In this document: one piece after another, positions 218 through 61,562 of the stretch
How positions within the stretch are numbered: position 1 is the first letter of the stretch
Layout of the letters: the number at the start of each line of letters is the position of its first letter
Assembly: GCA_964455585.1 (NCBI GenBank)
Contig: CAYVXW010000005.1
Coordinates: forward strand, 1,972 to 65,971
DNA length: 64,000 nucleotides
Direction: 5' to 3'
DNA from: an uncultured Christensenella sp.
GTDB lineage: Bacteria > Bacillota > Clostridia > Christensenellales > UBA1242
The notes under the pieces: generated by a model
Databases searched by the model: none
Seen by the model: the letters and a program-made list of their open reading frames with translations, nothing else
Told to the model about the DNA's origin: nothing
Made by a program: the position numbers and the translations under genes

Positions 218-799
218 TTAATCATTTTCACCACCATAATCTCTTATTGATTTAACCAAATACCCCAAAATTTTATACTCTTTTTCGTTAGAAATATCTA
301 TTGGGGGTTGGTCATTTTTTATTGATAGCATTTTTACCCCATTTTTTGCCCATAGGAAGCCCAAAAAGAGTTTACTTGATAAATTACTCACCAAGACCGT
401 TTTATTGCGAAAATCACAACAATTTCGAGCGAAAATAAGCATATCTCCATTATTTATACCAACTTGATTTTCAAAATTTGAGAAAATAGCAAAATATTGA
501 TTGTTTCCATCCAATAAAAATGGGTTGATTTTACTTTTTGTTGAGTTGTCCAAAATGTTAGTGTAAAAATCGATTAGATTATTTCCATTGTCATAATTTA
601 GCAAATAATCGGTGTTAACATGGTAGACCTTTGCTAAATCAAGTAACACTTTACCTCTAGGAATGCAAACATTATTTTCGTATTTACTAATTAAATATCT
701 ACTTATTCCAATATTTTCTGCAACTTCTTCTTGAGACATGCCCCTATTGGTTCTTATCTCTTTTAATCTATCTCCAAGTCTCATACTATTTACCACCAT
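218..799 (-). CDS. CI/LexA-like repressor (N-terminal XRE HTH plus C-terminal S24-like domain)
   Basis: HTH segment LKEIRTNRGMSQEEVAENIGISRYLISKYENN. C-terminal pattern GINNGDMLIF...KTVLVS...KLFLGF...KILGYLV resembles the LexA/CI autocleavage domain. Alternative start ATG at 784. Confidence 0.6.
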   Translation of the reverse strand: MVVNSMRLGDRLKEIRTNRGMSQEEVAENIGISRYLISKYENNVCIPRGKVLLDLAKVYHVNTDYLLNYDNGNNLIDFYTNILDNSTKSKINPFLLDGNNQYFAIFSNFENQVGINNGDMLIFARNCCDFRNKTVLVSNLSSKLFLGFLWAKNGVKMLSIKNDQPPIDISNEKEYKILGYLVKSIRDYGGEND

Positions 800-1175
800 T
801 AAAACTTAAGATTAAGGACTTTGTGTTTTGCAAGACAATATTCAATTCGTTATCGGACAAATTGTCGATGTCACTTTTTGAAACACCCAACATAGACAAA
901 GCAAGAAATAAATGTTCTCTTTCGTTATTACTTTGGTTTTCTTCAGTGGTTTCAACACCATAAATGTCGTTTGGTGAAACTTCAAGAATATCGCAGTATG
1001 CAAAGATAACATCTACACTTGGAACATAATCTCCCTTTTCCCAATGTGAGATGCTCGAATTGGATATTTGCAAGTTTAATTTTTCAGTTAAAAGATTAGC
1101 CATATCTCGTTGACTAATCTTTTTTTCTTTTCTTAATTTTGATAAGTTTTGGGCAAAAACGAATTTCTTTTCCAT
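786..1175 (-). CDS. XRE-family HTH transcriptional regulator (second immunity-region repressor)
   Basis: LSKLRKEKKISQRDMANLL...ISHWEKGDYVPSVDVIFAYCDILEVSPNDI is a classic Cro/C1-type HTH. Divergent from the Cro-like gene. Confidence 0.6.
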   Translation of the reverse strand: MEKKFVFAQNLSKLRKEKKISQRDMANLLTEKLNLQISNSSISHWEKGDYVPSVDVIFAYCDILEVSPNDIYGVETTEENQSNNEREHLFLALSMLGVSKSDIDNLSDNELNIVLQNTKSLILSFNGGK

Positions 1176-10318: not shown

Positions 10319-12028
10319 ATGGCATACGGACAAATGAGTTTATTTGATGGCAGTAAAGATTTTGTGATAAATAAACCTATTAGATTAATTGAATTGTTTG
10401 CAGGATATGGTAGTCAGCACTTTGCTTTGAAATATCTAGGTTTAAATGTTGAAAGTTATAAAATTTGCGAATGGGCAGTTAAAAGTATTCAAGCTTATAA
10501 AGATGCACACTTTTCAAATGATAACACTGATTATTCTGAAACTTTGTCTTATGATGAAATTGTTCAATGCTTACTTAAATGGGGAATCAGTGCAAATTAT
10601 AACGAACCAATGGCAATAGACCAAATCAAAAGAATGGGTGAAGCAAAATGTAGACAAGTCTATAACAACATTAAAGCAACTCACAACCTAGTTAATATTC
10701 AACAAGTAAATGGTAAAGATCTTGAGATTGTTGATGTAGACAAATATACCTACATAATGACTTATTCGTTTCCTTGTCAAGATTTGAGTATGGCAGGGTT
10801 GAGAGAAGGTATGGCAAAGGGCAGTGGAACAAGAAGTGGGTTACTTTGGGAAGTTGAGAGAATTTTAGATGAAATTTCCTCAGCCGATAAAACTAAACTA
10901 CCACAAATTCTACTAATGGAAAATGTTCCAGAAGTTATAGGGAGTGCTAATATATCACATTTTGCTGATTGGTTAAAGAAATTGGAAGAGTTGGGTTATA
11001 GAAATTATAAACAAATACTTAATTCAAAAGATTATGGTGTCCCTCAAAACCGAGCAAGGTGCTTTATGATTAGTCTATTGGGTGATTACTATTATGGGTT
11101 TCCTCAGCCGATAAAACTAAATGACAAGTTAAAAGATATTCTCGAAGAGAATGTTCCAGAAAAGTATTATTTGTCTGAAAGAGCATTGAAAGGTTCTTTG
11201 AATACAAATTTTGCTTGTTCAAAACTTGAAAACAAACTGCCTAAAGACGGTATTATTCCTACACTTTGTGCAAGAGATTACAAGGATCCAAAATGTGTTA
11301 TGGTTGAAATTCCAAAGGTAAACATAAACGGAAAGGACTACGATGTTACGAAAAATTGCGAAAATTATATTGAGCGGCACCAAAAGGGTTTGTTAGATAT
11401 GGAGACTAGAGCATGGAAAGATAACAAAATCGCACCGACATTACACACAAATTGTGGAAAAACTAAAATTTTGGAAAGTCAAAATTTAAAAACAAAATTG
11501 TGTAACGACTTAATCACTAGTGGGAAAGTTAAGGAAGGTGATGTGATTAGACACTCGTATAGTTCAAGTCGTATGAAAAATTTTTATGTTTCTAATTCCG
11601 AAAACCCAGATTGCAGTCCAACACTTGATACAAGATGTGATTGCTTGGGTGTCGTTGTAAAAGTGAATAGCAATAATAAAAGATTACAAGACCTTGTTTC
11701 AAAGACACAATTTGGGGATGATACATTGGCTTTAGATTGTTATAACCAAACCACACATAAAGACTTTATGCAAACAATTAAAACTAGTATTGATACTAGT
11801 AATATGAATATGATTTATACCGATTATCGTATTCGAAAATTAACTCCTAGAGAGTGCTTTAGACTTATGGGAGTAAACGATATTGACTTTGATAAAATTG
11901 CTCAAAACCAATCAAATGCGAGTTTGTATCATCTTGCAGGAGATAGTATTGTTGTCAATGTCTTAATGGCAATTTTTAAACAAATGCTAAAAGGAGAAAA
12001 CAATGAAAACGACAAAATTACAAATTGA
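10319..12028 (+). CDS. DNA cytosine-5 methyltransferase with oversized target-recognition region
   Basis: Motif I LFAGYGS, IV SFPCQDLS, VI LMENV, VIII QNRARCF, IX RKLTPRECFRLMG, X AGDSIVVNV. About 260 aa lie between motifs VIII and IX. Confidence 0.85.
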   Translation: MAYGQMSLFDGSKDFVINKPIRLIELFAGYGSQHFALKYLGLNVESYKICEWAVKSIQAYKDAHFSNDNTDYSETLSYDEIVQCLLKWGISANYNEPMAIDQIKRMGEAKCRQVYNNIKATHNLVNIQQVNGKDLEIVDVDKYTYIMTYSFPCQDLSMAGLREGMAKGSGTRSGLLWEVERILDEISSADKTKLPQILLMENVPEVIGSANISHFADWLKKLEELGYRNYKQILNSKDYGVPQNRARCFMISLLGDYYYGFPQPIKLNDKLKDILEENVPEKYYLSERALKGSLNTNFACSKLENKLPKDGIIPTLCARDYKDPKCVMVEIPKVNINGKDYDVTKNCENYIERHQKGLLDMETRAWKDNKIAPTLHTNCGKTKILESQNLKTKLCNDLITSGKVKEGDVIRHSYSSSRMKNFYVSNSENPDCSPTLDTRCDCLGVVVKVNSNNKRLQDLVSKTQFGDDTLALDCYNQTTHKDFMQTIKTSIDTSNMNMIYTDYRIRKLTPRECFRLMGVNDIDFDKIAQNQSNASLYHLAGDSIVVNVLMAIFKQMLKGENNENDKITN

Positions 12029-12260
12029 AGCTAGAACTTCAACTATGGAGAAAACAATAAAAGGTCTCGGAATTGAAATAGGGGATATTGTAAGAGTTGG
12101 ACAAGCAATTCTAATATGCACAGAAAAATATGATCTTGTTGATTTTGCAAGTGGCAAATACTCTTCAAGTGTTCCTAATTTAATTTTAGGTATGGTGTCT
12201 GGGAAAAATGAATACACGGTCTTTAAAGTTTCAGAAATGGTGGTTTATACTCTGCAATGA
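12003..12260 (+). CDS. Hypothetical small protein
   Basis: RBS AAAGGAG. Overlaps the flanking methylase genes. Confidence 0.35.
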   Translation: MKTTKLQIEARTSTMEKTIKGLGIEIGDIVRVGQAILICTEKYDLVDFASGKYSSSVPNLILGMVSGKNEYTVFKVSEMVVYTLQ

Positions 12261-12991
12261 CACTTGGAAGATTTGAATTAAACAAAGTGTATAACGAAGA
12301 TTGTTATAAAGCAATCAAAGATATCCCAGACAAAAGCATTGATTGTATTTATGTTGATATTCCTTACTTGTTTATGGGGGGGGGTGGAGGCACCAGCCGA
12401 ATCGCACAGCAAGTAAGTAAAATGAAACAAGAACTCAAGGATAATAACATTTATGATGGTATTGATTACAAAATATTTGAAGATTTTGTTAGAGTTCTCA
12501 AAAAAATAAATTGTTTCATTTGGTGTAGTAAAGAACAAATTTATCCAATTTTAGATTGGTGGATGAAAAATACTGACTGCACCTATCAAATACTTTGTTG
12601 GTGTAAAACAAACCCTGTTCCAATGTGTAATGGTAATTGGTTAAGTGATATTGAATATTGTTTGTATTTTAATCGTGGAACGAAATTGAACGATGGAATA
12701 AAACATAAGAGTAAGTGGTATTTAAGTCCACTAAACCAAAAGGATAAAGATAGTTTTGGACATCCAACCATTAAGCCATTGCCATTGGTTGAAAGACACT
12801 TATTACATACAACACAACCAAATGAGATTATTGCAGATTTCTTTTGTGGTAGTGGAACTACTTGTGTTGCTTGTAAAAATAATGGAAGAAATTACATTGG
12901 TTTTGAAATCAATGAAGAGTGGTGGAAAGTTGCAGAGAATAGATTAAACAACATAGATTCTCGTGGGCAAATTAGTCTTTTCACCAAATAA
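12257..12991 (+). CDS. Beta-class N6-adenine/N4-cytosine DNA methyltransferase
   Basis: Motif IV DIPY near the N-terminus and motif I FFCGSGTT near the C-terminus (circularly permuted beta-class order). Confidence 0.8.
   Translation: MTLGRFELNKVYNEDCYKAIKDIPDKSIDCIYVDIPYLFMGGGGGTSRIAQQVSKMKQELKDNNIYDGIDYKIFEDFVRVLKKINCFIWCSKEQIYPILDWWMKNTDCTYQILCWCKTNPVPMCNGNWLSDIEYCLYFNRGTKLNDGIKHKSKWYLSPLNQKDKDSFGHPTIKPLPLVERHLLHTTQPNEIIADFFCGSGTTCVACKNNGRNYIGFEINEEWWKVAENRLNNIDSRGQISLFTK
12376..12384 (+). repeat. Poly-G tract (9 G) inside the N6/N4 methylase coding sequence
   Basis: Read directly: ATG GGG GGG GGT, encoding MGGG just after DIPY. Confidence 0.9.
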
Positions 12992-19114: not shown

Positions 19115-19363
19115 CTATAACTCCACGTCTACAAATTTATATTTGTATGTGTATGTTATATTTTGTATTTGGGTTTTGTATTGGTCAAACCTTTGTATTA
19201 TGTTTATTTCGTTGTTTAGTCTTGTTATTTGTGTTTTGGTTGCTCGTTTTGTTTCTTTTGTATATAGAGTTTGTGCGATATTTTTATATATTGTTGTTGT
19301 GTCCGTGCTTGTAATTTCGTTTACTTGTTCGTTATTTCTATAAATTTTTAAAATCATTTGCAT
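19115..19363 (-). CDS. Hypothetical protein (accessory island)
   Basis: RBS GAGGTG. Overlaps the stop of the upstream gene. Confidence 0.4.
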   Translation of the reverse strand: MQMILKIYRNNEQVNEITSTDTTTIYKNIAQTLYTKETKRATKTQITRLNNEINIIQRFDQYKTQIQNITYTYKYKFVDVEL

Positions 19364-20304
19364 GGCTTCACCTCGTAAAGTGTTTTGCCATTATATGAAA
19401 TTGATAAAATATTTTTTACATATAGATCATCGTTTTTTTGTTTGCGTCTTATGGTTTCCCTTGTTTTGCTATCCCATCCAAAACAAGTATAATTAACTTG
19501 ATCCCCTTTTTTGTTGTATGGTTGGCGCTGTATGTCTTCGGCTTTATATTTGCCCGTTATGGTCTCGCCGTCTTCTAGTAGATATGTTATAACAATTTGA
19601 TTTGCTTTTTCTGGTATTGTGTCCTTTATTTCTTTTGACAATCTGTATTGTTTATATTCGTTGTTTGTTTCAATTTCTTTTAAATATTCTTGTTTTAGTC
19701 TGTTTATTAATTTTTTATATTTTATGTGCTTTGTAATGTCTTCAATTTTTGCATTAATGTCGTTTGTTATTGTTTTGTTGGGGTTTTCAATAAATTTCAA
19801 TAATGTTTTTGTAAAACGTGTGCTTTGTGTTCGGTTTTCTTGTTTCTCCCCATAATAATATAAATGTTCGGCATCTTCTCTTGCTGTGTGTTCGTTGCAC
19901 TCGTCCGGCTCGTTGTCGTCTGGTGTATTTTGCGCTATTTTTTCAATTTCTCTTGCTAGTAGTTCGTTATATTGTTTGTCAATTTCGTTTTGGTCTATGT
20001 TTCCGAAATCTTCTTTTATTGTTGTTTTTGTGTATGGATCCCATTTTTCAAAATAACTTTTTAGCTTAAAGCTTGCAAAATATAGTTTGTTTGTTCTTGT
20101 GTCTATTACTCCGTAATAGTCCGGTTTATTGTCCGTGTCCGGTGTGTCTTTTACATATTCAAACCCGTAAATATAATCAAATATATTTATTTTAGTTTTA
20201 AATAGTATTGTTTTATATCCTTGTCGGTCTTCTTGTGTTGTCAAATTTCTTTGTTTTTGATCATAAATAAAATCAAATATTTGTTTTTGTTTTTCGTTTA
20301 GCAT
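19354..20304 (-). CDS. Hypothetical 316-aa protein (accessory island)
   Basis: RBS AAGGAG. K/N/T/Q/E-rich, no motif recognised. The coding strand is strongly A/C-rich. Confidence 0.5.
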   Translation of the reverse strand: MLNEKQKQIFDFIYDQKQRNLTTQEDRQGYKTILFKTKINIFDYIYGFEYVKDTPDTDNKPDYYGVIDTRTNKLYFASFKLKSYFEKWDPYTKTTIKEDFGNIDQNEIDKQYNELLAREIEKIAQNTPDDNEPDECNEHTAREDAEHLYYYGEKQENRTQSTRFTKTLLKFIENPNKTITNDINAKIEDITKHIKYKKLINRLKQEYLKEIETNNEYKQYRLSKEIKDTIPEKANQIVITYLLEDGETITGKYKAEDIQRQPYNKKGDQVNYTCFGWDSKTRETIRRKQKNDDLYVKNILSISYNGKTLYEVKPCK

Positions 20305-20423
20305 TTTGCGATCTCCTTTTGTTTGTTGTATTCTTGTAGACTTTTAAAGTCTTGCGGCCTCTTGCCGTGTTGTTTGCACCAATCAATATATTTTTTGATG
20401 CTGTTTGTTGTGTCTTTTGTCAT
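20298..20423 (-). CDS. Small hypothetical protein (41 aa)
   Basis: RBS AAGGAGATTG, then ATG at 20423. Its stop overlaps the next start (ATGCTAA). MTKDTTNSIKKYIDWCKQHGKRPQDF... Confidence 0.3.
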   Translation of the reverse strand: MTKDTTNSIKKYIDWCKQHGKRPQDFKSLQEYNKQKEIAKC

Positions 20424-20746
20424 ACTTTTTCAATCTCCTTTTATATTATATTTTGTTAGTTATGACATACTAACATTATTAATATAATATATTTTGTTTG
20501 AAAAGTCAATAAAAAATCACAAAATTACAAAATAAAATCACACACAATATATATATATTACTTTTTTTGTTATATATGTGACTTGCACCCCATCCCCTAT
20601 ATGAACAGAGGCACCCCACATAAGGTGAGCCTCTACACTACGCCAAATTTCAAAAAGTCGGCAAAACCAAAAAGGGCATATTATACACTATGGGGAGCAA
20701 ACCCATCTCTCAATTTCTCTAAAAAATAAAAAGGGGCAGTAAAGTA

Positions 20747-20775
20747 TTGACAATTGGTTCAAGTTGTGATAAACT
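20747..20775 (+). promoter_or_regulatory. Promoter TTGACA-17-TAAACT with TGn extension
   Basis: TTGACA 20747-20752; TGATAAACT ends at 20775. No protein ORF follows. Confidence 0.4.
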
Positions 20776-20781
20776 GCAAGT

Positions 20782-20872
20782 GTTAGCATTTTGAAAGGGT
20801 GAGTTGTGTCTCCCTGTCATACTTGTGCTATATGAAAGAGAACGGGTTTAATGCCCGTTCTCTTTTGCTATT
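20782..20872 (+). ncRNA. Candidate ~90-nt small RNA, antisense to the 3' end of the HNH-like gene
   Basis: Bounded by the promoter above and the hairpin 20836-20864 plus T-rich tail. Internal stem GGGTGA/TCTCCC. No coding potential. Confidence 0.25.
20836..20864 (+). terminator. Hairpin AAGAGAACGGG / CCCGTTCTCTT with T-rich tail on the plus strand
   Basis: 11-bp stem. The stop codon of the minus-strand gene lies in the loop. The T-run is present only on the plus strand. Confidence 0.5.
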
Positions 20873-21513
20873 TTATTGAGTTCTCGTTTTAGTTTCTTAA
20901 TCGTTTCGTTTTCGGTATTTATTTTTTTGTTTAGTTCTTCAATGTTGCTTTGATAATTTTTTATATGGGTTTGGCACATGGTGATTTCTGCCCGGATCTT
21001 GTCGATTGAATTTTTATTACAATTAACTCTTTGATTTTTTAGAGCTGCAAGTTCTCGCTCAAGGCTTTCACGATATTCGGTAGAAAGGTTTTGTTGAGTA
21101 GAGAGAATATCATTTATTAGAGAGATTCTAAAGTCTATTTTCCGTTTAGATGAGTTTCTTGATTTGCTCATCCATTGGCAGTTTTCTGGCGAATAGCCTT
21201 TGGTATTGTCAATTCGGTCTATTGATAGTCCCTCATAGTATCCATTTGCATTTGACCAATCATAGAATTTTTTAAAACCATTTTCGTTATTCAGCCATTC
21301 ATTGCAAATTGTAATACCTTTTGCTCCGTAAGATTTATAATTGGGATTGTTTTTGTTATAACATCGATGTTTCATTCCGTTGTAAATTGAAAGTAGGTGT
21401 GAATATTGTTCAAATGGAACCTTGAAATTAAATTGTTTAGAAATTGCAAAATGTTTATTCTTATATTCTGAATCGTATCTACTGAAAAACCATTCGGTAT
21501 TAATTGTTTCCAT
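20848..21513 (-). CDS. HNH/homing-endonuclease-like DNA-binding protein with C-terminal coiled coil
   Basis: MKHRCYNKNNPNYKSYGAKGITICNEW ... GLSIDRIDNTKGYSPENCQWMSKSRN is a motif common in phage HNH-like proteins near terminases. Confidence 0.5.
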   Translation of the reverse strand: METINTEWFFSRYDSEYKNKHFAISKQFNFKVPFEQYSHLLSIYNGMKHRCYNKNNPNYKSYGAKGITICNEWLNNENGFKKFYDWSNANGYYEGLSIDRIDNTKGYSPENCQWMSKSRNSSKRKIDFRISLINDILSTQQNLSTEYRESLERELAALKNQRVNCNKNSIDKIRAEITMCQTHIKNYQSNIEELNKKINTENETIKKLKRELNKIAKENGH

Positions 21514-38710: not shown

Positions 38711-40015
38711 GTGAGTATAGATACAACCAAAAAGGTAAATGGAATATCTGTAAATGGAACAAATATGCAATTCGGTTCCGGTATAGATTCCAATATATTA
38801 CCAAGTAATATTAAAGAAGGTGTTAGCATTTTGGGTGTTGATGGAACATTCAAAGGTGGCACCTTACAAAACAAAACAATAAACATAACAAGGAATAAAA
38901 CGACCATTGTTACACCCGATGATGGATATTATGGTCTTGGACAAGTTGAAATCATAACAAAGGTTCAAGGCGGCAGTGGTGGAACATCGTCTGCAATCTA
39001 TGGGGTGTCTTGGGATAACGATGGCACAACAACAATGACAAGAACCGATGATGCTGTAGAAATGACTTATGCGATTTCAAACGGAAAAGTTGCAAGTGAT
39101 TTTGACAATGTGTTCCCATACAACGAAATGAAAAGAACAACAATAGACGGAAATGTATTTGTACATGTTCCTGCCATGTTCTTTAGGGTAACAGTTGATG
39201 AGGACAAAAAAATCACAGGTGTTGCAGTAAGTCAAACACAAGGTGAGGGTGATGACTGGTATGAAACAAGACCTTTCTATTACGGAGCCTATGGTGCATC
39301 TAGTGATGGTTCGGTATTAAAATCGGTTAGTGGTGCAAGTAGAAAATATTCTATTACAAGAGCAAATGCAAGAACCCAGGCAATGGCAGTTGGAACTGAT
39401 TATCACCAAAGAGACCTATATGCTGGAACAATACTTATGTTCTTGTGGTGGATAGAATTTGCAACCAAAAACTCGGCAAGTATTATGACAGGCACACAAT
39501 ATGACAAAACCACTGGCAATACCGATAGCATTTACAACGAAGAAGAAGGTGAAAATTTCTGTGTTAGTGGTTATAATACATCCACATCTCAAATGGTATG
39601 GCACGGAATTGAAGATTATATCGGAAATGGTCTTGAGTGGGAAGATGGAATTACCGGTAATGGTTCTTCTGGTGGAACTCAATATGTGAGTGATGACTAC
39701 ACTCTATATGACGATTATTCTGGTGGGAGCAAGATGTCAGAATTGTCGTTCAATTCTCCGACAACAAGTGGGAACTGTCTAGAGGCTCTTGGCTGGGATG
39801 AAGATCATCCATTCTTGGTTCAACCTATTGCAACACGAAGTGATGGTAGTTATGTGAGTGGGTTCTGCGACTATGGTTCGACTAGCAACAATATAGTCTC
39901 CTCCCGTGGGTGTAGCTACCCGTCGAGTGCCTACAGCGGGGTCTCTTACTTCGCTCGTCGCAATGTGTCGCCTTCGTATTCGGACATCGGTTGTCGCCTT
40001 CTATTAAATGCCTAG
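38711..40015 (+). CDS. DGR target protein: receptor-binding tail fibre with C-terminal FGE/C-type-lectin-like variable domain
   Basis: GTG start. IGNGLEWEDG (FGE-sulfatase-like motif). The C-terminal 36 codons form the VR, ending ...IGCRLLLNA. Confidence 0.85.
   Translation: MSIDTTKKVNGISVNGTNMQFGSGIDSNILPSNIKEGVSILGVDGTFKGGTLQNKTINITRNKTTIVTPDDGYYGLGQVEIITKVQGGSGGTSSAIYGVSWDNDGTTTMTRTDDAVEMTYAISNGKVASDFDNVFPYNEMKRTTIDGNVFVHVPAMFFRVTVDEDKKITGVAVSQTQGEGDDWYETRPFYYGAYGASSDGSVLKSVSGASRKYSITRANARTQAMAVGTDYHQRDLYAGTILMFLWWIEFATKNSASIMTGTQYDKTTGNTDSIYNEEEGENFCVSGYNTSTSQMVWHGIEDYIGNGLEWEDGITGNGSSGGTQYVSDDYTLYDDYSGGSKMSELSFNSPTTSGNCLEALGWDEDHPFLVQPIATRSDGSYVSGFCDYGSTSNNIVSSRGCSYPSSAYSGVSYFARRNVSPSYSDIGCRLLLNA
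39896..40005 (+). repeat. DGR variable region (VR)
   Basis: 110-bp alignment to 40089-40198 at a constant offset of 193. 16 mismatches fall at TR adenines and 2 do not. Confidence 0.85.
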
Positions 40016-40027
40016 ACAGGGGGCAGT

Positions 40028-40042
40028 GGGGGATATTCCCCC
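40028..40042 (+). promoter_or_regulatory. GC hairpin downstream of VR (GGGGGA-TAT-TCCCCC)
   Basis: 6-bp stem and 3-nt loop, about 22 nt after the end of VR homology. Confidence 0.6.
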
Positions 40043-40088
40043 AAATACAACCAATTACAATTAAATAAAATAAAGGGTATTTGTTGCT

Positions 40089-40198
40089 GTCTCCTACCGT
40101 GGTTGTAACAACCCGTCGAATGCCAACAACGGGGTCTCTTACTTCAATCGTAACAATGTGTCGAATTCGAATTCGAACATCGGTTGTCGCAATGTATT
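40089..40198 (+). repeat. DGR template repeat (TR), non-coding
   Basis: In the VR frame it reads V S Y R G C N N P S N A N N G V S Y F N R N N V S N S N S N I G C R N, with 12 AAY codons. Confidence 0.85.
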
Positions 40199-40326
40199 TC
40201 CAAAAGCATCAAAAAGAAAATTCGTTTTCAAGGCAACACTTATCCTATACCACTTGGTAGAAAACACTCCGAACTAGGAGTAGGTTAGTAAATAATTGAA
40301 AGCTTACTAGGGGAAATAGATGGTTT

Positions 40327-41406
40327 ATGAAAAGAGTAGGATATATTTATGAAAAGATTATTGATTTGCAAAATTTAGAGTTGGCAATTGTAAAAGCATG
40401 TGAACACAAAAAGAAAAATAAGTTTATTGTTCATTTGTTGGAGAATAAAAGTTCATATGCTCAAGAAATAAGAACTCTAATTTTACAGGAAGATTTCCAT
40501 CCTTTAATCATTAAACATAAGAAAATAAAAGAAAAGACCAAAGTAAGAGATATTGCAGTTCCAAAGTTTTATCCAGACCAAATTATTCATTGGGCAGTTT
40601 GTTTACAATTGAATCAGATATTTATGAAAGGTATGTATCATTACAATTGTGGCAGTGTTCCAAATCGTGGTGGAGTTTATGCTAAAAAATATATCGAAAA
40701 ATGTTATTCAATATTAAAAGAGAAAAAATCTTACACGTTGAAACTTGACATTAAAAAATATTTTTACAACATTTCACACGAAAAAATGGAAGAATTGTTT
40801 CGAGAAAAAATTAAAGATGAAAGAGTTCTTGAAATGCTACACAAAATTATTGATTGTGGGGAAGATGGTTTACCAATAGGGTTTTATACATCCCAATGGT
40901 TCGCAAATTTTTATCTTCATAGACTTGATAATTATATAAAACAAGTATTACAAATTAAATACTATATTAGATATGTAGATGATATGGTTTTAATTGATAC
41001 AAATAAACGAAAATTACACAAGGCAGTTGAAGAAATACAAAAATATCTCGATAACAATAGTTATTGTGTAACACTAAAAGATAATTGGCAGTTGTGGAAA
41101 ACCTTTTCTCGACCACTTGATTTTCTAGGATATAGGTTCTACAAAAATTATACATTGTTGAGAAAAGGAATTCTCAAGAAAATGAAAAGACAAATCTTGA
41201 GAGTTGGAAAAGAAAAGACTTTGAGAATATGTAGGGCAAGGGCATTGACTTCGTATATGGGTTGGTTAAAACAAACAAGCATATCAAGGAGTTTCTATGT
41301 CAAACATATTAGACCTACTTGCAGTAAAAAATGGGTTGGCAGAATAATATCACATGATAGTAAAAGGAGAAATAAAAATGATAATAAAAGACGGAACAAA
41401 CCCTAA
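40327..41406 (+). CDS. DGR reverse transcriptase
   Basis: RT motif 5 IRYVDDMVLI (YxDD). DGR-type motif 4 LPIGFYTSQWFANFYL. 359 aa, directly downstream of TR. Confidence 0.9.
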   Translation: MKRVGYIYEKIIDLQNLELAIVKACEHKKKNKFIVHLLENKSSYAQEIRTLILQEDFHPLIIKHKKIKEKTKVRDIAVPKFYPDQIIHWAVCLQLNQIFMKGMYHYNCGSVPNRGGVYAKKYIEKCYSILKEKKSYTLKLDIKKYFYNISHEKMEELFREKIKDERVLEMLHKIIDCGEDGLPIGFYTSQWFANFYLHRLDNYIKQVLQIKYYIRYVDDMVLIDTNKRKLHKAVEEIQKYLDNNSYCVTLKDNWQLWKTFSRPLDFLGYRFYKNYTLLRKGILKKMKRQILRVGKEKTLRICRARALTSYMGWLKQTSISRSFYVKHIRPTCSKKWVGRIISHDSKRRNKNDNKRRNKP

Positions 41407-43594: not shown

Positions 43595-43603
43595 GGGGGG
43601 GGG
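43595..43603 (+). repeat. Poly-G tract (9 G) upstream of the lipoprotein gene
   Basis: Read directly. Immediately followed by TATGAT, 65 nt before ATG 43668. Confidence 0.9.
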
Positions 43604-43667: not shown

Positions 43668-45263
43668 ATGAAAGAAAAATTTAAAAAACTTTTAAAAATG
43701 TTCGCGATTTGCTGTATGGCGCTCATTTCGTGCTTCTCGATTTTTGCTTGTGGCGAAACACCTGACGACCCAGAAACTCCCGGCAGTGGAACTGAACAAG
43801 AATTGCCAGAAGGCGTTACAGGTACTCCTGTTACCGAGACTACTGCGGTTGATAAATTCAATCAATTGAAGACTGCAAGGGATGCAATGACTCCAAACAA
43901 CGGCTACACTTACACCGACGAAGGTACAACCAAAATGGAAGTAACACCAAACTGGGATGCTTTTGAGAGAAATAAAGTAGCAAAAATGGAAGGTGAAGAT
44001 GTTTCACTTGCCGATGATACTACTTTCACTGCATTCAAAGGTACCATTGATGCAGGTCTTTCTCGAATGAATGATGACTATTCTAGCAAAGAAATTATAT
44101 CTTACAATAGCACTACTAAAAATGGATATAATTTGTATGAATCTTCTAGTGGAGATAAGACATATGAAATTTCGGATATCGAAAATAATATGTTGTATGA
44201 TTATTCTAGCAATACATACACAGATAGTGGTAATAATACTCTAGAATACAAACGTAAATACAACATTGACCAAAACTACTATAACCAATTCACTTATGAC
44301 TTCTATGAAAATATGGAATATAGCGTTGGTGAGGTTCTAAAAGACACTTTGGAAGACACCGAAAGTTATCTAAGAAATGGCTTTGAATCAATGGGTCTTA
44401 CTTTTAGTGAAGATGACCTTGGATTTACTTTTGAAGAAGAAAACGGGCTTTATACTTTGGTTATCTATGCAAATGTAACAGATAAAACAATGAATTTCTA
44501 TGGTGAAAGCCTTACAGGTGCGGACTTTACAATGTCGCTAGTATTCAAATTTAATTCTACTATGCTAACAGAACTTAGTGCGGTTATGAACCTTGATGCA
44601 ACTATGGCTATGCCTGTAGGTCAAGATGCAAACGGAAATGACGTAAATCTTTCGATTGCTTTTGATATGGACAACACCCAAAAATTCACTTTCTCAAACA
44701 CCTATGACGCCGAGCACGCTCCAACGTACGTTGCTAGTGAGTTTGTAGGCGATGGCTATGATGATGGCGAACAAGTTGTAACAAATAATTCTTCAAATGT
44801 ATGTCTACATATTGGCGATTATGAGTTTGGAAATGTAGATTTTAAAATGGGAGATGCTTTAAATTATAGCGATCCTTGGATTTTTAGTGGTTTTGTTACA
44901 GGTGGACTAAACGGTATTACTTGGTATACCGACAAGGCTTGTACTCAAGCATTTATAGGAAATATGCCATCTTATGACATTAACCTTTATGCAAAATATA
45001 GTGATGCTTTGGCAAAATTGGATACCAATCACGTATTTGTTCTTGAAATGTATACAAGCAACTATGTTTCTAGTGTAGACTATGAGGCTTACAGTGAGCC
45101 TAGAATTGATGTAACTGAAAAAACAGGAACAGTTAACGCCGAATATTACACTTGTGCATATGTAAATGGCACAAAAGTAGAAGCAGGTCAAAGTTATACT
45201 CTAAATACAGGCCTAAACAAAATTATATTTGTTTACAATCCAGAATATTATTATTATTATTAA
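43668..45263 (+). CDS. Surface lipoprotein with C-terminal Listeria-Bacteroides repeat
   Basis: Start ATG 43668 behind AAAGGAG. Signal peptide with lipobox SIFAC|G. ITWYTDKACTQAF...INLYAKY. Ends in YYYYY. Confidence 0.7.
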   Translation: MKEKFKKLLKMFAICCMALISCFSIFACGETPDDPETPGSGTEQELPEGVTGTPVTETTAVDKFNQLKTARDAMTPNNGYTYTDEGTTKMEVTPNWDAFERNKVAKMEGEDVSLADDTTFTAFKGTIDAGLSRMNDDYSSKEIISYNSTTKNGYNLYESSSGDKTYEISDIENNMLYDYSSNTYTDSGNNTLEYKRKYNIDQNYYNQFTYDFYENMEYSVGEVLKDTLEDTESYLRNGFESMGLTFSEDDLGFTFEEENGLYTLVIYANVTDKTMNFYGESLTGADFTMSLVFKFNSTMLTELSAVMNLDATMAMPVGQDANGNDVNLSIAFDMDNTQKFTFSNTYDAEHAPTYVASEFVGDGYDDGEQVVTNNSSNVCLHIGDYEFGNVDFKMGDALNYSDPWIFSGFVTGGLNGITWYTDKACTQAFIGNMPSYDINLYAKYSDALAKLDTNHVFVLEMYTSNYVSSVDYEAYSEPRIDVTEKTGTVNAEYYTCAYVNGTKVEAGQSYTLNTGLNKIIFVYNPEYYYYY

Positions 45264-58013: not shown

Positions 58014-58022
58014 TGCTTATTT

Positions 58023-58757
58023 GTGTTATACCGAGAGGGTGCAAAAGCACGAACCGAGTGTATCTATTTCGATGCGACAACTTTTATAGATATACTCCGT
58101 TCGCTCATTACATTCGCTCAGTCGATATGACACGGGTTGAATATTATATGTGTCATACCGAGAGAGCGTAAGCGAACCGAGTGTATCTATTTCCAATTAA
58201 CCACTTTTCGTTCTAGATTCTTCCGCTTTCGCGTTCAGAATGACATAAACCGAGTGATTGCACCACTCGTGTCATTCTGAGGAAGGCAACGCCGACCGAA
58301 GAATCTAAAATGTGCAGTTTGATTTTGGTAAGGATTATCCTTATAGATATACTCCGTTCGGAAACTAATGTTTCCTCAGTCGATATGACACCAAATAATA
58401 TTCTCCCCGTGTCATACCGACCGAGGGGGTTGAAACGACCGAGCGGAGTAAATCTATAAAAATCATCCTCTTGTACTTTTTCACTTTTCACTCTTACTTC
58501 TTCACTTGCAAGGCCATGCCTTGCGTGTGTCATACCGTATTCGACCGCAAGGGAGAATCGCCGTCACCCACTAGAGCACATTATGTAGCGTACACTTGTG
58601 ACGGCACAAAGACTTGGTAGGTTGCTATTACATAAAGCAAACAAGTGAGCGGAGTGTATCTATTGGGTTATCCTCTTGTACACTTCTTCACTTTTCACTT
58701 TTACTTATTACTTGTGGCGACCCTGTTGTCACTTGTCATTCTGAGTGGGTGTAGCCG
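58023..58757. repeat. Mosaic repeat cluster 1 (families A, B, C and long variant D)
   Basis: A units at 58023, 58086(rev), 58150, 58343(rev), 58409. B at 58211(rev), 58271, 58735(partial). C at 58467, 58672. D at 58527-58663. Confidence 0.85.
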
Positions 58758-59306: not shown

Positions 59307-61562
59307 ATGAAATTTGGAAAGGTTGCAAGCGTGACAAAAAAAGACAATAGGTATTATGGTGCAAAAAAACGCCAAATGCCATTTAGTTTAATATTGTTAA
59401 TATGCTTGGCAGTGTGTATTGTTAGCACTACTGTGGCATATTTTTTTGCATCCGATTGGGCAGGTAAATACACCACAATGTCCGGTAAAGTAGATATCGA
59501 GGCGGTCAGTAGCACGGGCTCAAGCATTGAGGATAGAGTAGACGGCGATGTAACCATATCCAATTTGAAAGTGTCGCTAGAGGATAACTACAAGTTTTTA
59601 ATTTCAGGTATGGATATAAAAATGCCCGCTTATGTAAAGGTATATCAGTCCACCACAAAGCCTCTCCTTAGGGCAAAGTTCTCCCTTAAACTATATAAGA
59701 CCACAACTGGTGGTGATGTGCTACTAGAGGGGACAAGTGACCCCAAAAACATTTCTACCCAAATGACCTCAAGTATACACTCGGTTATAGAGACAAATGG
59801 TTGGGTTCTAAACGATGATGGATATTATTATTACATAAAAGGTAGCACCATTCAAGACCCTGTTTCTAATACAATAATGTACGAAGTCGATGCAACGGCG
59901 GGTAATGTTATTGAGCCGTTTGTAAAGGATACCGACCTTATCAAATTTCCCGAGGATATTGATGCCTCCTATTCGGGTTTGAAAATTAAGTTTTCAGTCA
60001 CCTTTGAGGCTATACAAAATTATATTCCAAACCCCGATGACGATGGAAAAACCAACCTTCCAAACACAATTGCCAATTCAAAGCGTATCTTTGATGATGG
60101 CGACGAAATTGGTGGGGGGGGGGCTAGCCTAACGGAGGAAGAAATCTTCCAAATATATCTAGACGCCCTAAACAATATGTCCACAACCCCAACGGGCGGA
60201 TATGTGGCAAATAGCATAGGTTTTGGTTTCCAAAACGGATATAGTGAAGGTGAAAAAATAACAAGCGCCTATAATGGTAATAGTTATGATTCTTTGTACT
60301 TTATTCTTGAAGATAGCCCTACAACCTCGTATGTTGAATATGACCCTTATTCGGATGCTGTAATCTACTGGTATCCTAAAAAAGTTGACAACAAGTATGT
60401 GGTGAAGTATGTAAATGGTGGCGAATTGTACCAAGATGACGAAGTTACGGTCAATGACCTTGCAACCGCAGTTTCGGATCAATATTCGTCCGTTGTGGAA
60501 GCGATAAAAAAGGACTCTTTTGGTTTAAGTGGTTCCACATCTTTTTCTGGATTTTATGAAGAAATAAAATTAGTGTTCCTTGAAGACTATGGCTTTAGCG
60601 AGCAAGTCGTGGACGCAAATGTAAATTACACCTTGGATAAAAGTGGTGGGGTATATAATTTTGTTGTTAGTGGTGATTGTGCGGAGTATATTGATGGCAC
60701 TTGGACTAGACTAAAAATGAGTGCTACAGTCAAATTCAATGGTACTATGGTTTACAAATCTTCCTTTGAACAATTGGAACAAGTGGGCACTTTGCCTAGC
60801 GATATTACTGAGGAATATAGGGTTGTCGAGGACTATGCAATAGAAGGTTATTCAACCAAATATAAGCCAGACATATCGGACATAGAAATACCGGAGGAAT
60901 ACAACGAAATTCTTAAATCGGCATATGCCAAAATGAACGCCAATAACGGCTTTGTGCTTAAGGATTATACCTGGATAAGTTGGACTGGTGAAGGTGACGT
61001 AGATAGTGGTGCGTTTGGTAGAATATCCGCATACGATGGCACTAATAAGGAATCGGCATATAGTGTGGAAAAATATTTGGATGTGGTGGATTATACCGAT
61101 TGGTCAAAGGGTGTGTTGGACTTTTATTATGCGTTCGGCTATGAAGATGGTTCATTGTACTATTACAATAGCGACAATAAATCTATAGCAACAGATAGTA
61201 ATAAAGAAAAAGTTGCAAGTGACCAAATTGAAAAATTTAATTCGGCTTTATCTACAATTGGTGACTATATTGGCGAAACGGGTGGTGATACGGTTACTAA
61301 TTTACGTGATGCGTTAGTCAGTTTTGGTGTTTCGGAATCTGAAATAGTGGCATCGTACACAAAAAATGGTGACACCTATAAGATATCTGTTACTGGAACA
61401 GTTGAAGGGGTAAGGTGGGAATGTGCTATTGAGTTTACTGAAGACGCCATAACTAAGTACTATTTTAAGATAGAACAAAACTATCCTGACAAGGAAAATG
61501 GTGCTTGGCATTATAGTGGATACGATTTTGAAGCCTATAGCACTACTTATAAGCCTATATAG
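59307..61562 (+). CDS. Large secreted/surface protein with SipW-type (TasA-class) signal peptide
   Basis: N-terminal PFSLILLICLAVCIVSTTVAYFFASD resembles the SipW-cognate signal class (..gTyAyFtD). 751 aa, T/S/Y/G/D-rich. Confidence 0.6.
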   Translation: MKFGKVASVTKKDNRYYGAKKRQMPFSLILLICLAVCIVSTTVAYFFASDWAGKYTTMSGKVDIEAVSSTGSSIEDRVDGDVTISNLKVSLEDNYKFLISGMDIKMPAYVKVYQSTTKPLLRAKFSLKLYKTTTGGDVLLEGTSDPKNISTQMTSSIHSVIETNGWVLNDDGYYYYIKGSTIQDPVSNTIMYEVDATAGNVIEPFVKDTDLIKFPEDIDASYSGLKIKFSVTFEAIQNYIPNPDDDGKTNLPNTIANSKRIFDDGDEIGGGGASLTEEEIFQIYLDALNNMSTTPTGGYVANSIGFGFQNGYSEGEKITSAYNGNSYDSLYFILEDSPTTSYVEYDPYSDAVIYWYPKKVDNKYVVKYVNGGELYQDDEVTVNDLATAVSDQYSSVVEAIKKDSFGLSGSTSFSGFYEEIKLVFLEDYGFSEQVVDANVNYTLDKSGGVYNFVVSGDCAEYIDGTWTRLKMSATVKFNGTMVYKSSFEQLEQVGTLPSDITEEYRVVEDYAIEGYSTKYKPDISDIEIPEEYNEILKSAYAKMNANNGFVLKDYTWISWTGEGDVDSGAFGRISAYDGTNKESAYSVEKYLDVVDYTDWSKGVLDFYYAFGYEDGSLYYYNSDNKSIATDSNKEKVASDQIEKFNSALSTIGDYIGETGGDTVTNLRDALVSFGVSESEIVASYTKNGDTYKISVTGTVEGVRWECAIEFTEDAITKYYFKIEQNYPDKENGAWHYSGYDFEAYSTTYKPI
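60114..60123 (+). repeat. Poly-G tract (10 G) inside the surface-protein coding sequence
   Basis: Read directly: GGT GGG GGG GGG GCT, encoding GGGGA. Confidence 0.9.

Follow-up and report, generated by a model that had tools for sequence, protein, structure and literature searches.

A poly-G tract as a probable ON/OFF switch in an orphan DNA methyltransferase gene of a Clostridia prophage

This analysis concerns a prophage gene for an N6/N4 DNA methyltransferase (methylase) in 64,000 nucleotides (nt) of DNA from an uncultured Christensenella sp. (assembly GCA_964455585.1, contig CAYVXW010000005.1, positions 1,972 to 65,971); this whole stretch is called the window, and positions are counted from its first letter. 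The gene contains a run of nine guanines (G9), and we conclude that the run is very probably a contingency locus that switches the phage methylase ON and OFF, with a bet-hedge on the methylation of virions as the likeliest benefit. Strong comparative evidence supports the slippage-switch reading, as set out below. Phage orphan methylases are usually taken as constant anti-restriction armour; if switching is indeed stochastic, one phage clone would give rise to both methylated and unmethylated genomes and could survive in a wider range of hosts. It would also be a testable answer to the question of how phages cope with hosts that have both methylation-sensitive and methylation-dependent nucleases.

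The features of the gene, which encodes 244 amino acids (aa), are as follows; motif I is the site that binds S-adenosylmethionine (AdoMet).

12257-12991, forward strand: beta-class N6/N4 DNA methyltransferase gene, 244 aa; an open reading frame (ORF) that is in frame (ON) as assembled
12356-12367, forward strand: motif IV (DIPY, D34-Y37), the catalytic loop; D34, P36 and Y37 are invariant among 59 homologues
12376-12384, forward strand: G9 homopolymer, the proposed slipped-strand switch, coding for G41-G43 of MGGGGG three codons past motif IV
12414-12420, forward strand: two TAA stops (12414-12416 and 12418-12420), one for each alternative frame; the -1 and +1 products end after 52 and 54 aa
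12422-12424, forward strand: internal in-frame ATG (M56), the next start after the tract; a product starting there lacks motif IV
12839-12862, forward strand: motif I (FFCGSGTT, aa 195-202), AdoMet binding; F196, G198 and T202 are invariant among the 59 homologues

The methylase ORF matches the PF01555 (N6_N4_Mtase) profile with an E-value of 1.7e-27 (97.3 bits; the cut-off is 26.7), and its residues 28-227 align with positions 1-220 of the 221 in the profile, so it belongs to the family from end to end. Motif IV lies N-terminal to motif I, which is the beta permutation. The closest solved structures are those of M1.HpyAVI (5hek, E 7e-30) and then CcrM (6pbd), both N6-adenine enzymes, and the same activity is likely here. 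M1.HpyAVI (5hek/5hfj) and CcrM share the motif order of the window methylase; they are cellular enzymes without a repeat tract, however, and are informative about fold and probable chemistry only. In the AlphaFold (AF2) model of the methylase (predicted local distance difference test score, pLDDT, 85.6), residues 38-47 form a coil that joins the DIPY strand to helix 48-62. The closest genome matches to the methylase are metagenome-assembled genomes of Christensenellaceae and Christensenellales. For LigA of the window the nearest named relatives (67-68% identity) are likewise Clostridia metagenome-assembled genomes, and the host would accordingly be an uncultured member of the Clostridia, possibly of the Christensenellales.

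The tract reads ATG GGG GGG GGT GGA GGC ACC, preceded by TTG TTT. Runs of this kind are rare in the window, which has a GC content of 34.5% (31-32% near the methylase gene): the only G-runs of at least 7 are at 12376 (9), 43595 (9) and 60114 (10), and the scan of the window found no G-runs of length 7-8 and no C-runs of at least 6. Under a model of independent and identically distributed bases, 0.025 G-runs of at least 9 would be expected. The pattern GGGGGGGGG has four matches in the window, compared with a mean of 0.10 and a maximum of 2 in 100 dinucleotide-preserving shuffles, and GGG makes up just 12.5% of the glycine codons in prophage ORFs. The G9 tract is more than chance. A G-quadruplex role seems unlikely for a single G-run.

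When the gene is rebuilt in silico with other tract lengths, the full-length methylase is obtained from G9 and G12, and only a product of 52-54 aa from G7, G8, G10 and G11. Both alternative frames are shut within 12 codons past the tract. Thus a change of a single G abolishes the product in silico, which is the behaviour of a homopolymer contingency locus inside an ORF. Motif I lies downstream of the tract and is therefore lost in OFF alleles. In the OFF alleles of relatives, gene callers begin at the ATG equivalent to M56 and report a 189-aa product (P0241, P0245 and P0249). The original prediction, made from the letters of the window, had placed a 9-nt poly-G tract at 12376-12384 within this methylase gene, directly after motif IV and ahead of FFCGSGTT; it had also held that G-runs were unexpected in such AT-rich phage DNA and that a change of one G would truncate the protein before FFCGSGTT. 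Sequence, ORF and PF01555 match agree on the first point, the order DIPY, tract, FFCGSGTT bears out the second, and the expectation of 0.025 runs at 31-32% GC and the 52-54-aa products of G8 and G10 do the same for the other two.

A programmed recoding site, where ribosomal -1 slippage on G_GGG_GGU or transcriptional slippage would restore the frame so that no true OFF state exists, is scarcely credible. G GGG GGT would fit the X_XXY_YYZ heptamer shape, but the window allele is in frame and needs no recoding, both alternative frames end within the same 12 codons, and tract lengths from 7 to 13 at many sites fit no single recoding signal.

The main evidence for switching comes from relatives in which the same site has different lengths. 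Lengths were taken from assemblies; 'ON' means that the methylase is in frame, 'OFF' that it is out of frame at the tract. The alleles are listed by flanking sequence, with nucleotide identity.

ttacttgtttat-Gn-tggaggcacc (the flank of the window itself), 93% identity: ON in the window (G9) and L233 (G9); OFF in L239 and L240 (G8)
tacttgtatata-Gn-tggaggcacc ('TATATA-Gn'), 93% identity: ON in L234-L238 (G8); OFF in L229, L230 and L232 (G7) and in L231 (G10)
ctctatat-Gn-tggaggcacc, with the same gene order, 79% identity: ON in L057 (G9); OFF in L219-L228 (G8)

ON and OFF alleles are thus both present in each of three sub-lineages. The relatives with 93% nucleotide identity have a tract of G7, G8, G9 or G10, and about half are out of frame; in L239 and L240 the methylase is called as two pieces of 52 aa and 189 aa. 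L234 (G8) and L230 (G7) can be aligned over 3,735 nt with no mismatches and one gap, which is the tract. Since these two differ by the tract alone, its length appears to change before any base substitution accumulates. Elsewhere in the family, L115 (G13, intact) and L170 (G11, out of frame) align over 6,816 nt with no mismatches and one gap. Further pairs from the same lineage are L017 (G10, intact) with L022 (G11, split), and L029 (G9) with L040 (G7), both out of frame where G8 would be in frame. Near-identical genomes therefore include both ON and OFF alleles, the length variation that marks a contingency locus, and with the tract in a prophage gene this is also what defines a phage-borne poly-G contingency locus. 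The original prediction had proposed a slippage-driven ON/OFF phage methylase and suggested comparing tract lengths across related genomes. The comparison is clear, with G7-G10 and both states among the nearest relatives, and together with the L234/L230 pair it favours that proposal.

Could the differences in length come from sequencing or assembly errors at a homopolymer, with the true sequence always in frame? Homopolymers of 8 or more are error-prone, and many contigs, taken from Logan or ENA, are short and of low coverage. We nevertheless regard this as highly improbable: three pipelines gave one and the same OFF length in ten samples, alleles can be as much as 3 G apart (G7 vs G10), finished genomes of cultured Bordetella phages have G8, G9 and G10 in the homologous gene, and the enrichment of tracts described below is independent of length calls. 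The poly-G artefact of two-colour Illumina chemistry was considered separately and ruled out, the tracts being internal, recurrent across pipelines and bordered on both sides by conserved coding sequence; the sole tract resembling it is a G8 at the extreme end of contig L057.

Two side observations concern other methylases of the family. Among P0246-P0258 (the P0001 cluster), methylases at least 90% identical overall have a cassette directly behind motif IV that is either LFQDGGNGTSDVAKRIIKL or the very different LFMGGGGGTSRIAQQVSKM; this suggests recombination in the loop-helix segment that bears the tract. Phages in GenBank gave only distant methylase homologues (at most 42% identity) and no close cultured relatives. 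In one of them, Enterococcus phage 156 (LR031359; L218 1501-2224), the homologue is annotated as two coding sequences, and the break is at an A8 run (ATGAAAAAAAATTAA) inside the conserved VMKKIN motif, not at a G run; a poly-A switch and a sequencing error are both possible causes of the split.

A wider comparison covered 217 loci with methylase homologues, from GTDB genomes, IMG/VR and metagenomes. At the tract site the family has a conserved protein motif, DIPY-L-x-x-x-GGxGxS, and some glycine codons are thus to be expected there. This is the starting point for a non-adaptive explanation, in which a GGG-coded glycine loop has grown by slippage into a hypermutable run and the length variants reflect the decay of a methylase that is no longer needed. 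The conserved GGxG means that a short G-run arises easily; many relatives are OFF, with one OFF allele (G8) fixed in ten samples; and one lineage (P0003) manages without a tract. We consider this explanation unlikely, however, based on where the tracts occur and how long they are. G/C runs of at least 7 are six-fold denser in the methylase genes (32 in 163 kb, or 0.196/kb) than in their flanks (30 in 937 kb, or 0.032/kb). It is in the methylase genes that tracts are concentrated, not in the remaining genes of these phages. The runs inside the genes are all G on the sense strand, with lengths up to 13. In 200 synonymous-codon shuffles, which keep each protein and its codon usage, runs of at least 9 in 159 unique in-frame genes numbered 0.48 on average and never more than 3; the genes themselves have 12, a 25-fold excess. 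For runs of at least 8, the counts are 18 observed and 1.8 expected. The run lengths in these 159 genes are bimodal (G6 in four, G7 in two, G8 in six, G9 or longer in 12), which likewise argues against simple growth of a glycine run.

Tracts map to at least six sites on the window protein: aa 40-43, approximately 84, 101-105, 140-144, 186-188 and 198 (motif I). Nine loci, with 30-84% identity, have a tract at aa 40-43, and five metagenomic homologues have one at 186-188. Sites 101-105, 140-144 and 186-188 are non-glycine in the window protein and in the family consensus, a further point against the non-adaptive explanation. In the AlphaFold model, there is coil at sites 40-43, 140-144, 186-188 and 198, a helix ends at 101-105, and the lone tract near aa 84 is at the start of a strand. 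A glycine run alone as the full explanation of the G-run is ruled out by the codon-shuffle test and the non-glycine sites. Of the 29 loci with a tract, eight are out of frame there. Decay would also be hard to reconcile with OFF alleles that have no other lesions (no mismatches over 3.7-6.8 kb compared with their ON partners) and with the presence of both states in every one of the three sub-lineages. Taken together, independent origin at loop positions, excess at the codon level and otherwise undamaged OFF alleles look like the signature of selected contingency loci.

Several observations nonetheless weigh against a selected, frequently used switch. The P0003 lineage (79% identical, 10 contigs) encodes MGGGGG as ATG GGT GGA GGT GGA GGC, and the cluster representative P0001 (91% identical) reads QDGGNG at the tract site. 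Since both do without the tract, the switch appears to be dispensable, evolutionarily young, and gained and lost over time. The original prediction had named mixed GGN codons in orthologues as a result that would count against it; this is the case in the P0003 lineage only, and the overall pattern fits gain and loss of the switch. The identical G8 OFF allele of L219-L228 was found in ten independent samples (from Logan, JGI and ENA) and could represent a stably inactivated gene instead of frequent switching. Assemblies report only the majority tract length, and low-coverage contigs are prone to homopolymer miscalls. The methylation activity and its target are assigned by homology, the timing of methylase expression is deduced from gene order with the promoter scans uninformative, and the benefit of an OFF state is conjecture.

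The N6/N4 gene is not the only modification gene with such tracts. In L219-L226 (around position 1494), the C5 methylase gene beside it has a tract as well: in L219 and its relatives this is G8 in an intact gene for 552 aa, and in L222 and L224 it is G10, with the gene split into 205 aa and 360 aa. In L229-L238, motif I (FSCFACGGGSTMG) of the PF00145 gene (e.g. L229, position 3715) contains a run that varies from G7 to G10, with G9 as the sole in-frame length, and this C5 tract assorts independently of the N6/N4 tract. G-runs of at least 8 occur at 0.21 per kb in N6/N4 genes, 0.36 per kb in C5 genes and 0.015 per kb in all other DNA of the loci, densities that include related contigs and so overstate the number of independent events. 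What the present analysis adds is comparative evidence that candidate poly-G switches recur and converge in phage methylases. Whether they are general, having evolved repeatedly in N6/N4 and C5 methylases of phages from anaerobic communities, with the two methylases of one phage switching independently and combinatorial methylation of virions as the bet-hedge, is a more tentative matter; we view it as possible and would not yet rely on it. A literature search found no account of widespread poly-G tracts in phage orphan methylases or in phages of gut Clostridia, although such absence is not proof. As a side observation, L171 has a methylase-adjacent ORF that lacks a Pfam match and contains a PP-loop-like motif (YVLSLSYGKDSLA); it is out of frame at each of its two tracts, G9 and G8 (4659 and 4838).

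The position of the gene within the prophage suggests how the switch would act. The prophage extends from position 1 to approximately 43.5 kb of the window; beyond about 43.6 kb the DNA is richer in GC (39-43%) and contains housekeeping genes (pcrA, ligA, priA, def, fmt, rsmB, rlmN, rsgA and rpe). The rightward early genes that follow the repressors code for SbcC-like, RecT, primase-like and DnaB-like proteins. Downstream of the methylase is a gene for a CxxCxxCC protein, and the large terminase, portal, major head protein and tape measure come later. Other features of the prophage around the methylase are:

218-1175, reverse strand: two repressor-like genes at the left end of the prophage, divergent from the early operon
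10319-12028, forward strand: C5 cytosine methyltransferase gene (PF00145, E 8.5e-54), without a tract in the window
12003-12260, forward strand: ORF of 85 aa with a stop that overlaps the start of the methylase (ATGA); a counterpart of 82-84 aa precedes the gene in relatives
19354-21513, reverse strand: two leftward ORFs, one without a match, set between the early and the packaging module where the phage genes otherwise run rightward
20848-21513, reverse strand: HNH-type ORF of this pair, matching HNH or 'restriction endonuclease' PHROGs, 8 kb from the methylase

Because the stop of the 85-aa ORF overlaps the methylase start, the arrangement suggests translational coupling of the two within one operon. 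The neighbours of the methylase are the C5 methylase, the 85-aa ORF, the CxxCxxCC protein and small ORFs, with no cognate endonuclease of the Type II kind: among the ORFs scanned around the gene (7.0-23.1 kb), no endonuclease family was found other than the one HNH-type ORF, and the methylase is on these grounds best called an orphan. There is also no res or hsd gene among the ORFs scanned between 7.0 and 23.1 kb, so that a prophage-borne gene for 244 aa does not fit the Type III or Type I locus of a phasevarion. An active restriction partner, if present, would make the OFF state lethal. The leftward pair at 19354-21513 is possibly a moron or else a defence island.

Scans for promoters and terminators near the methylase gene gave nothing above the shuffled background, and the timing of expression is therefore judged from gene order. 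Expression during lytic growth is most likely, since the gene is part of the early/replication operon and lacks a restriction partner. In the proposed mechanism, slipped-strand mispairing as the DNA is replicated would add a G to the tract or remove one. G9 (or G12) would keep the frame and give an active beta-class, probably N6-adenine, DNA methyltransferase; G8 or G10 would shift the frame three codons past DIPY and lead to a stop within 12 codons, and the OFF remnants, each lacking motif IV or the AdoMet site, would methylate nothing. The enzyme would tolerate the tract because the glycines are in a flexible loop. Switching in the early/replication operon during lytic growth would then produce a mixture of methylated and unmethylated progeny genomes, a hedge between hosts whose restriction-modification systems cut unmethylated DNA and hosts whose Type IV systems cut methylated DNA. 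Bet-hedging of virion methylation is in our opinion the likeliest benefit; we infer it, as we do the slippage mechanism with its rate and reversibility, when the gene is expressed, and the target base and motif. There are also practical consequences. In the output of gene callers, OFF alleles turn up as split genes or as 189-aa 'methylases'. Where shared methylation motifs are used to bin genomes or to assign phages to hosts, mixtures of ON and OFF genomes would be misleading.

An alternative role is that of a lysogen phasevarion, in which a methylase expressed from the prophage would alter host gene expression as it switches and create epigenetically distinct subpopulations of lysogens. Switchable methylases work this way in Haemophilus, Neisseria, Helicobacter and Moraxella (PMC6902483), PamA of S. 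aureus is described as a prophage methylase that changes the phenotype of its host (PMC13076061), and the present host itself has poly-G loci. We still think this role improbable: within the rightward early operon, the gene has the DnaB-like helicase/primase genes on one side and the packaging genes on the other, is transcribed divergently from the reverse-strand repressor genes at 218-1175 and is coupled to the ORF upstream. This is the position of a lytic gene and not of a moron, and no independent promoter stood out in the scan. As the methylase is in a lytic early operon, heterogeneous virions are more likely than heterogeneous lysogens.

Comparison with known systems also helps to place the proposed virion switch. 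The closest phage precedent appears to be bpm (bbp30) of Bordetella phage BPP-1, the gene for an adenine methylase and a barely studied member of the same family. Its poly-G tract was noted by Liu et al. 2004 and 'not studied further', as cited in a 2025 preprint (bioRxiv 10.1101/2025.10.21.683753). The product is a 251-aa beta-class homologue of the window methylase (pairwise E 4e-14, 22% identity), and its G8 is the only G/C run of at least 7 in the 42.5-kb genome. The tract is G8 in BPP-1 and vB_BbrP_003, G9 in BIP-1 and G10 in BMP-1, in genes that are otherwise at least 99.6% identical; the differences of +1 and +2 G from BPP-1 are at most an indirect hint of frequent, reversible switching. 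Like the window methylase, bpm has motif IV ahead of motif I (in bpm, DPPY then FAGSGTT) and is an early gene beside the repressor/primase region. Its tract (..VMPGGVVLDPF..) aligns with window aa 186-188, however, whereas the window tract is elsewhere, at aa 41-43 after motif IV. The hosts differ too, a Betaproteobacterium with 65% GC for BPP-1 and an uncultured low-GC member of the Clostridia here, as do the virion modules. Both the BPP-1 phage and the window prophage carry a diversity-generating retroelement.

ON/OFF methylases driven by repeats are well established in the phasevarions of the four pathogen genera named above (PMC6902483). Phasevarion genes (Type III mod, Type I hsd) likewise have a simple-sequence repeat inside the ORF and switch ON and OFF by frameshift. 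However, they are chromosomal genes paired with res or hsdR, and they are expressed in the cell, where they control regulons of the host; the window gene, by contrast, belongs to a phage lytic operon and codes for a small orphan enzyme of the beta class that is Type II-like. In Cj0031, a Type IIG enzyme of Campylobacter jejuni, the length of a poly-G tract in the methylase ORF sets site-specific methylation (PMC4889913); Cj0031 is a large fused restriction-modification enzyme of the bacterial chromosome, unlike the orphan phage methylase considered here. Poly-G tracts are also reported in receptor-binding genes of Campylobacter Fletchervirus (Sorensen 2021, as cited in bioRxiv 10.1101/2025.10.21.683753), and the same preprint describes contingency loci in T2/T4. 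As in the window prophage, these are hypermutable homopolymers on phage genomes, used or proposed as a means of bet-hedging; the genes concerned, however, code for tail or receptor-binding proteins or are diverse T-even genes, with no DNA-modification genes among them, and the phages are virulent phages of Gram-negative hosts.

The two other long G-runs of the window lie beyond the last prophage ORF. The G10 at 60114-60123 is in frame at aa 270 of a 751-aa protein (ORF 59307-61562) with an N-terminal membrane anchor and no Pfam match, and a change of one G would cut the protein to 272-275 aa. The orthologue in GCA_964512365.1 (73% identical; L241 2941-2947) has G7 instead, is frameshifted and is called as 219 aa and 461 aa. 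Since the run in frame at 60114 is a frameshifted G7 in this orthologue, the host chromosome also appears to have a variable poly-G locus. The G9 at 43595-43603 is intergenic, 140 nt past the last prophage ORF and 64 nt upstream of the ATG at 43668, which begins an ORF for a putative lipoprotein (MKEKFKKLLKMFAICCMALISCFSIFAC...). TATGAT is directly 3' of this tract; no convincing -35/-10 pair was found at the tract, where promoter and terminator scans were no better than the shuffled background. The suggestion in the original prediction that the organism uses poly-G loci in surface-protein contexts thus held for 60114, given the frameshifted G7 of the sister orthologue; the run at 43595 proved to be intergenic, upstream of a putative lipoprotein gene. 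More broadly, the comparative data show what appear to be poly-G contingency loci in uncultured gut Clostridia and their phages, beyond the usual pathogens.

Two repeat-associated elements can be added as minor observations. A cluster of intergenic repeats of approximately 45 nt, similar to repetitive extragenic palindromic elements (GTGTCATACCGAG...CGAGTGTATCTAT) and both direct and inverted, occupies 58017-58710, between rpe and the gene for the 751-aa surface protein. The prophage also contains the diversity-generating retroelement mentioned above (38711-41406); BPP-1 likewise pairs a retroelement with a poly-G methylase. Its parts are:

39896-40005: variable repeat, at the 3' end of ORF 38711-40015
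40089-40198: template repeat, 84% identical to the variable repeat, with differences nearly all at template adenines
40248-40321: Rfam RT-18 RNA, 52.8 bits
40327-41406: reverse transcriptase, PF00078

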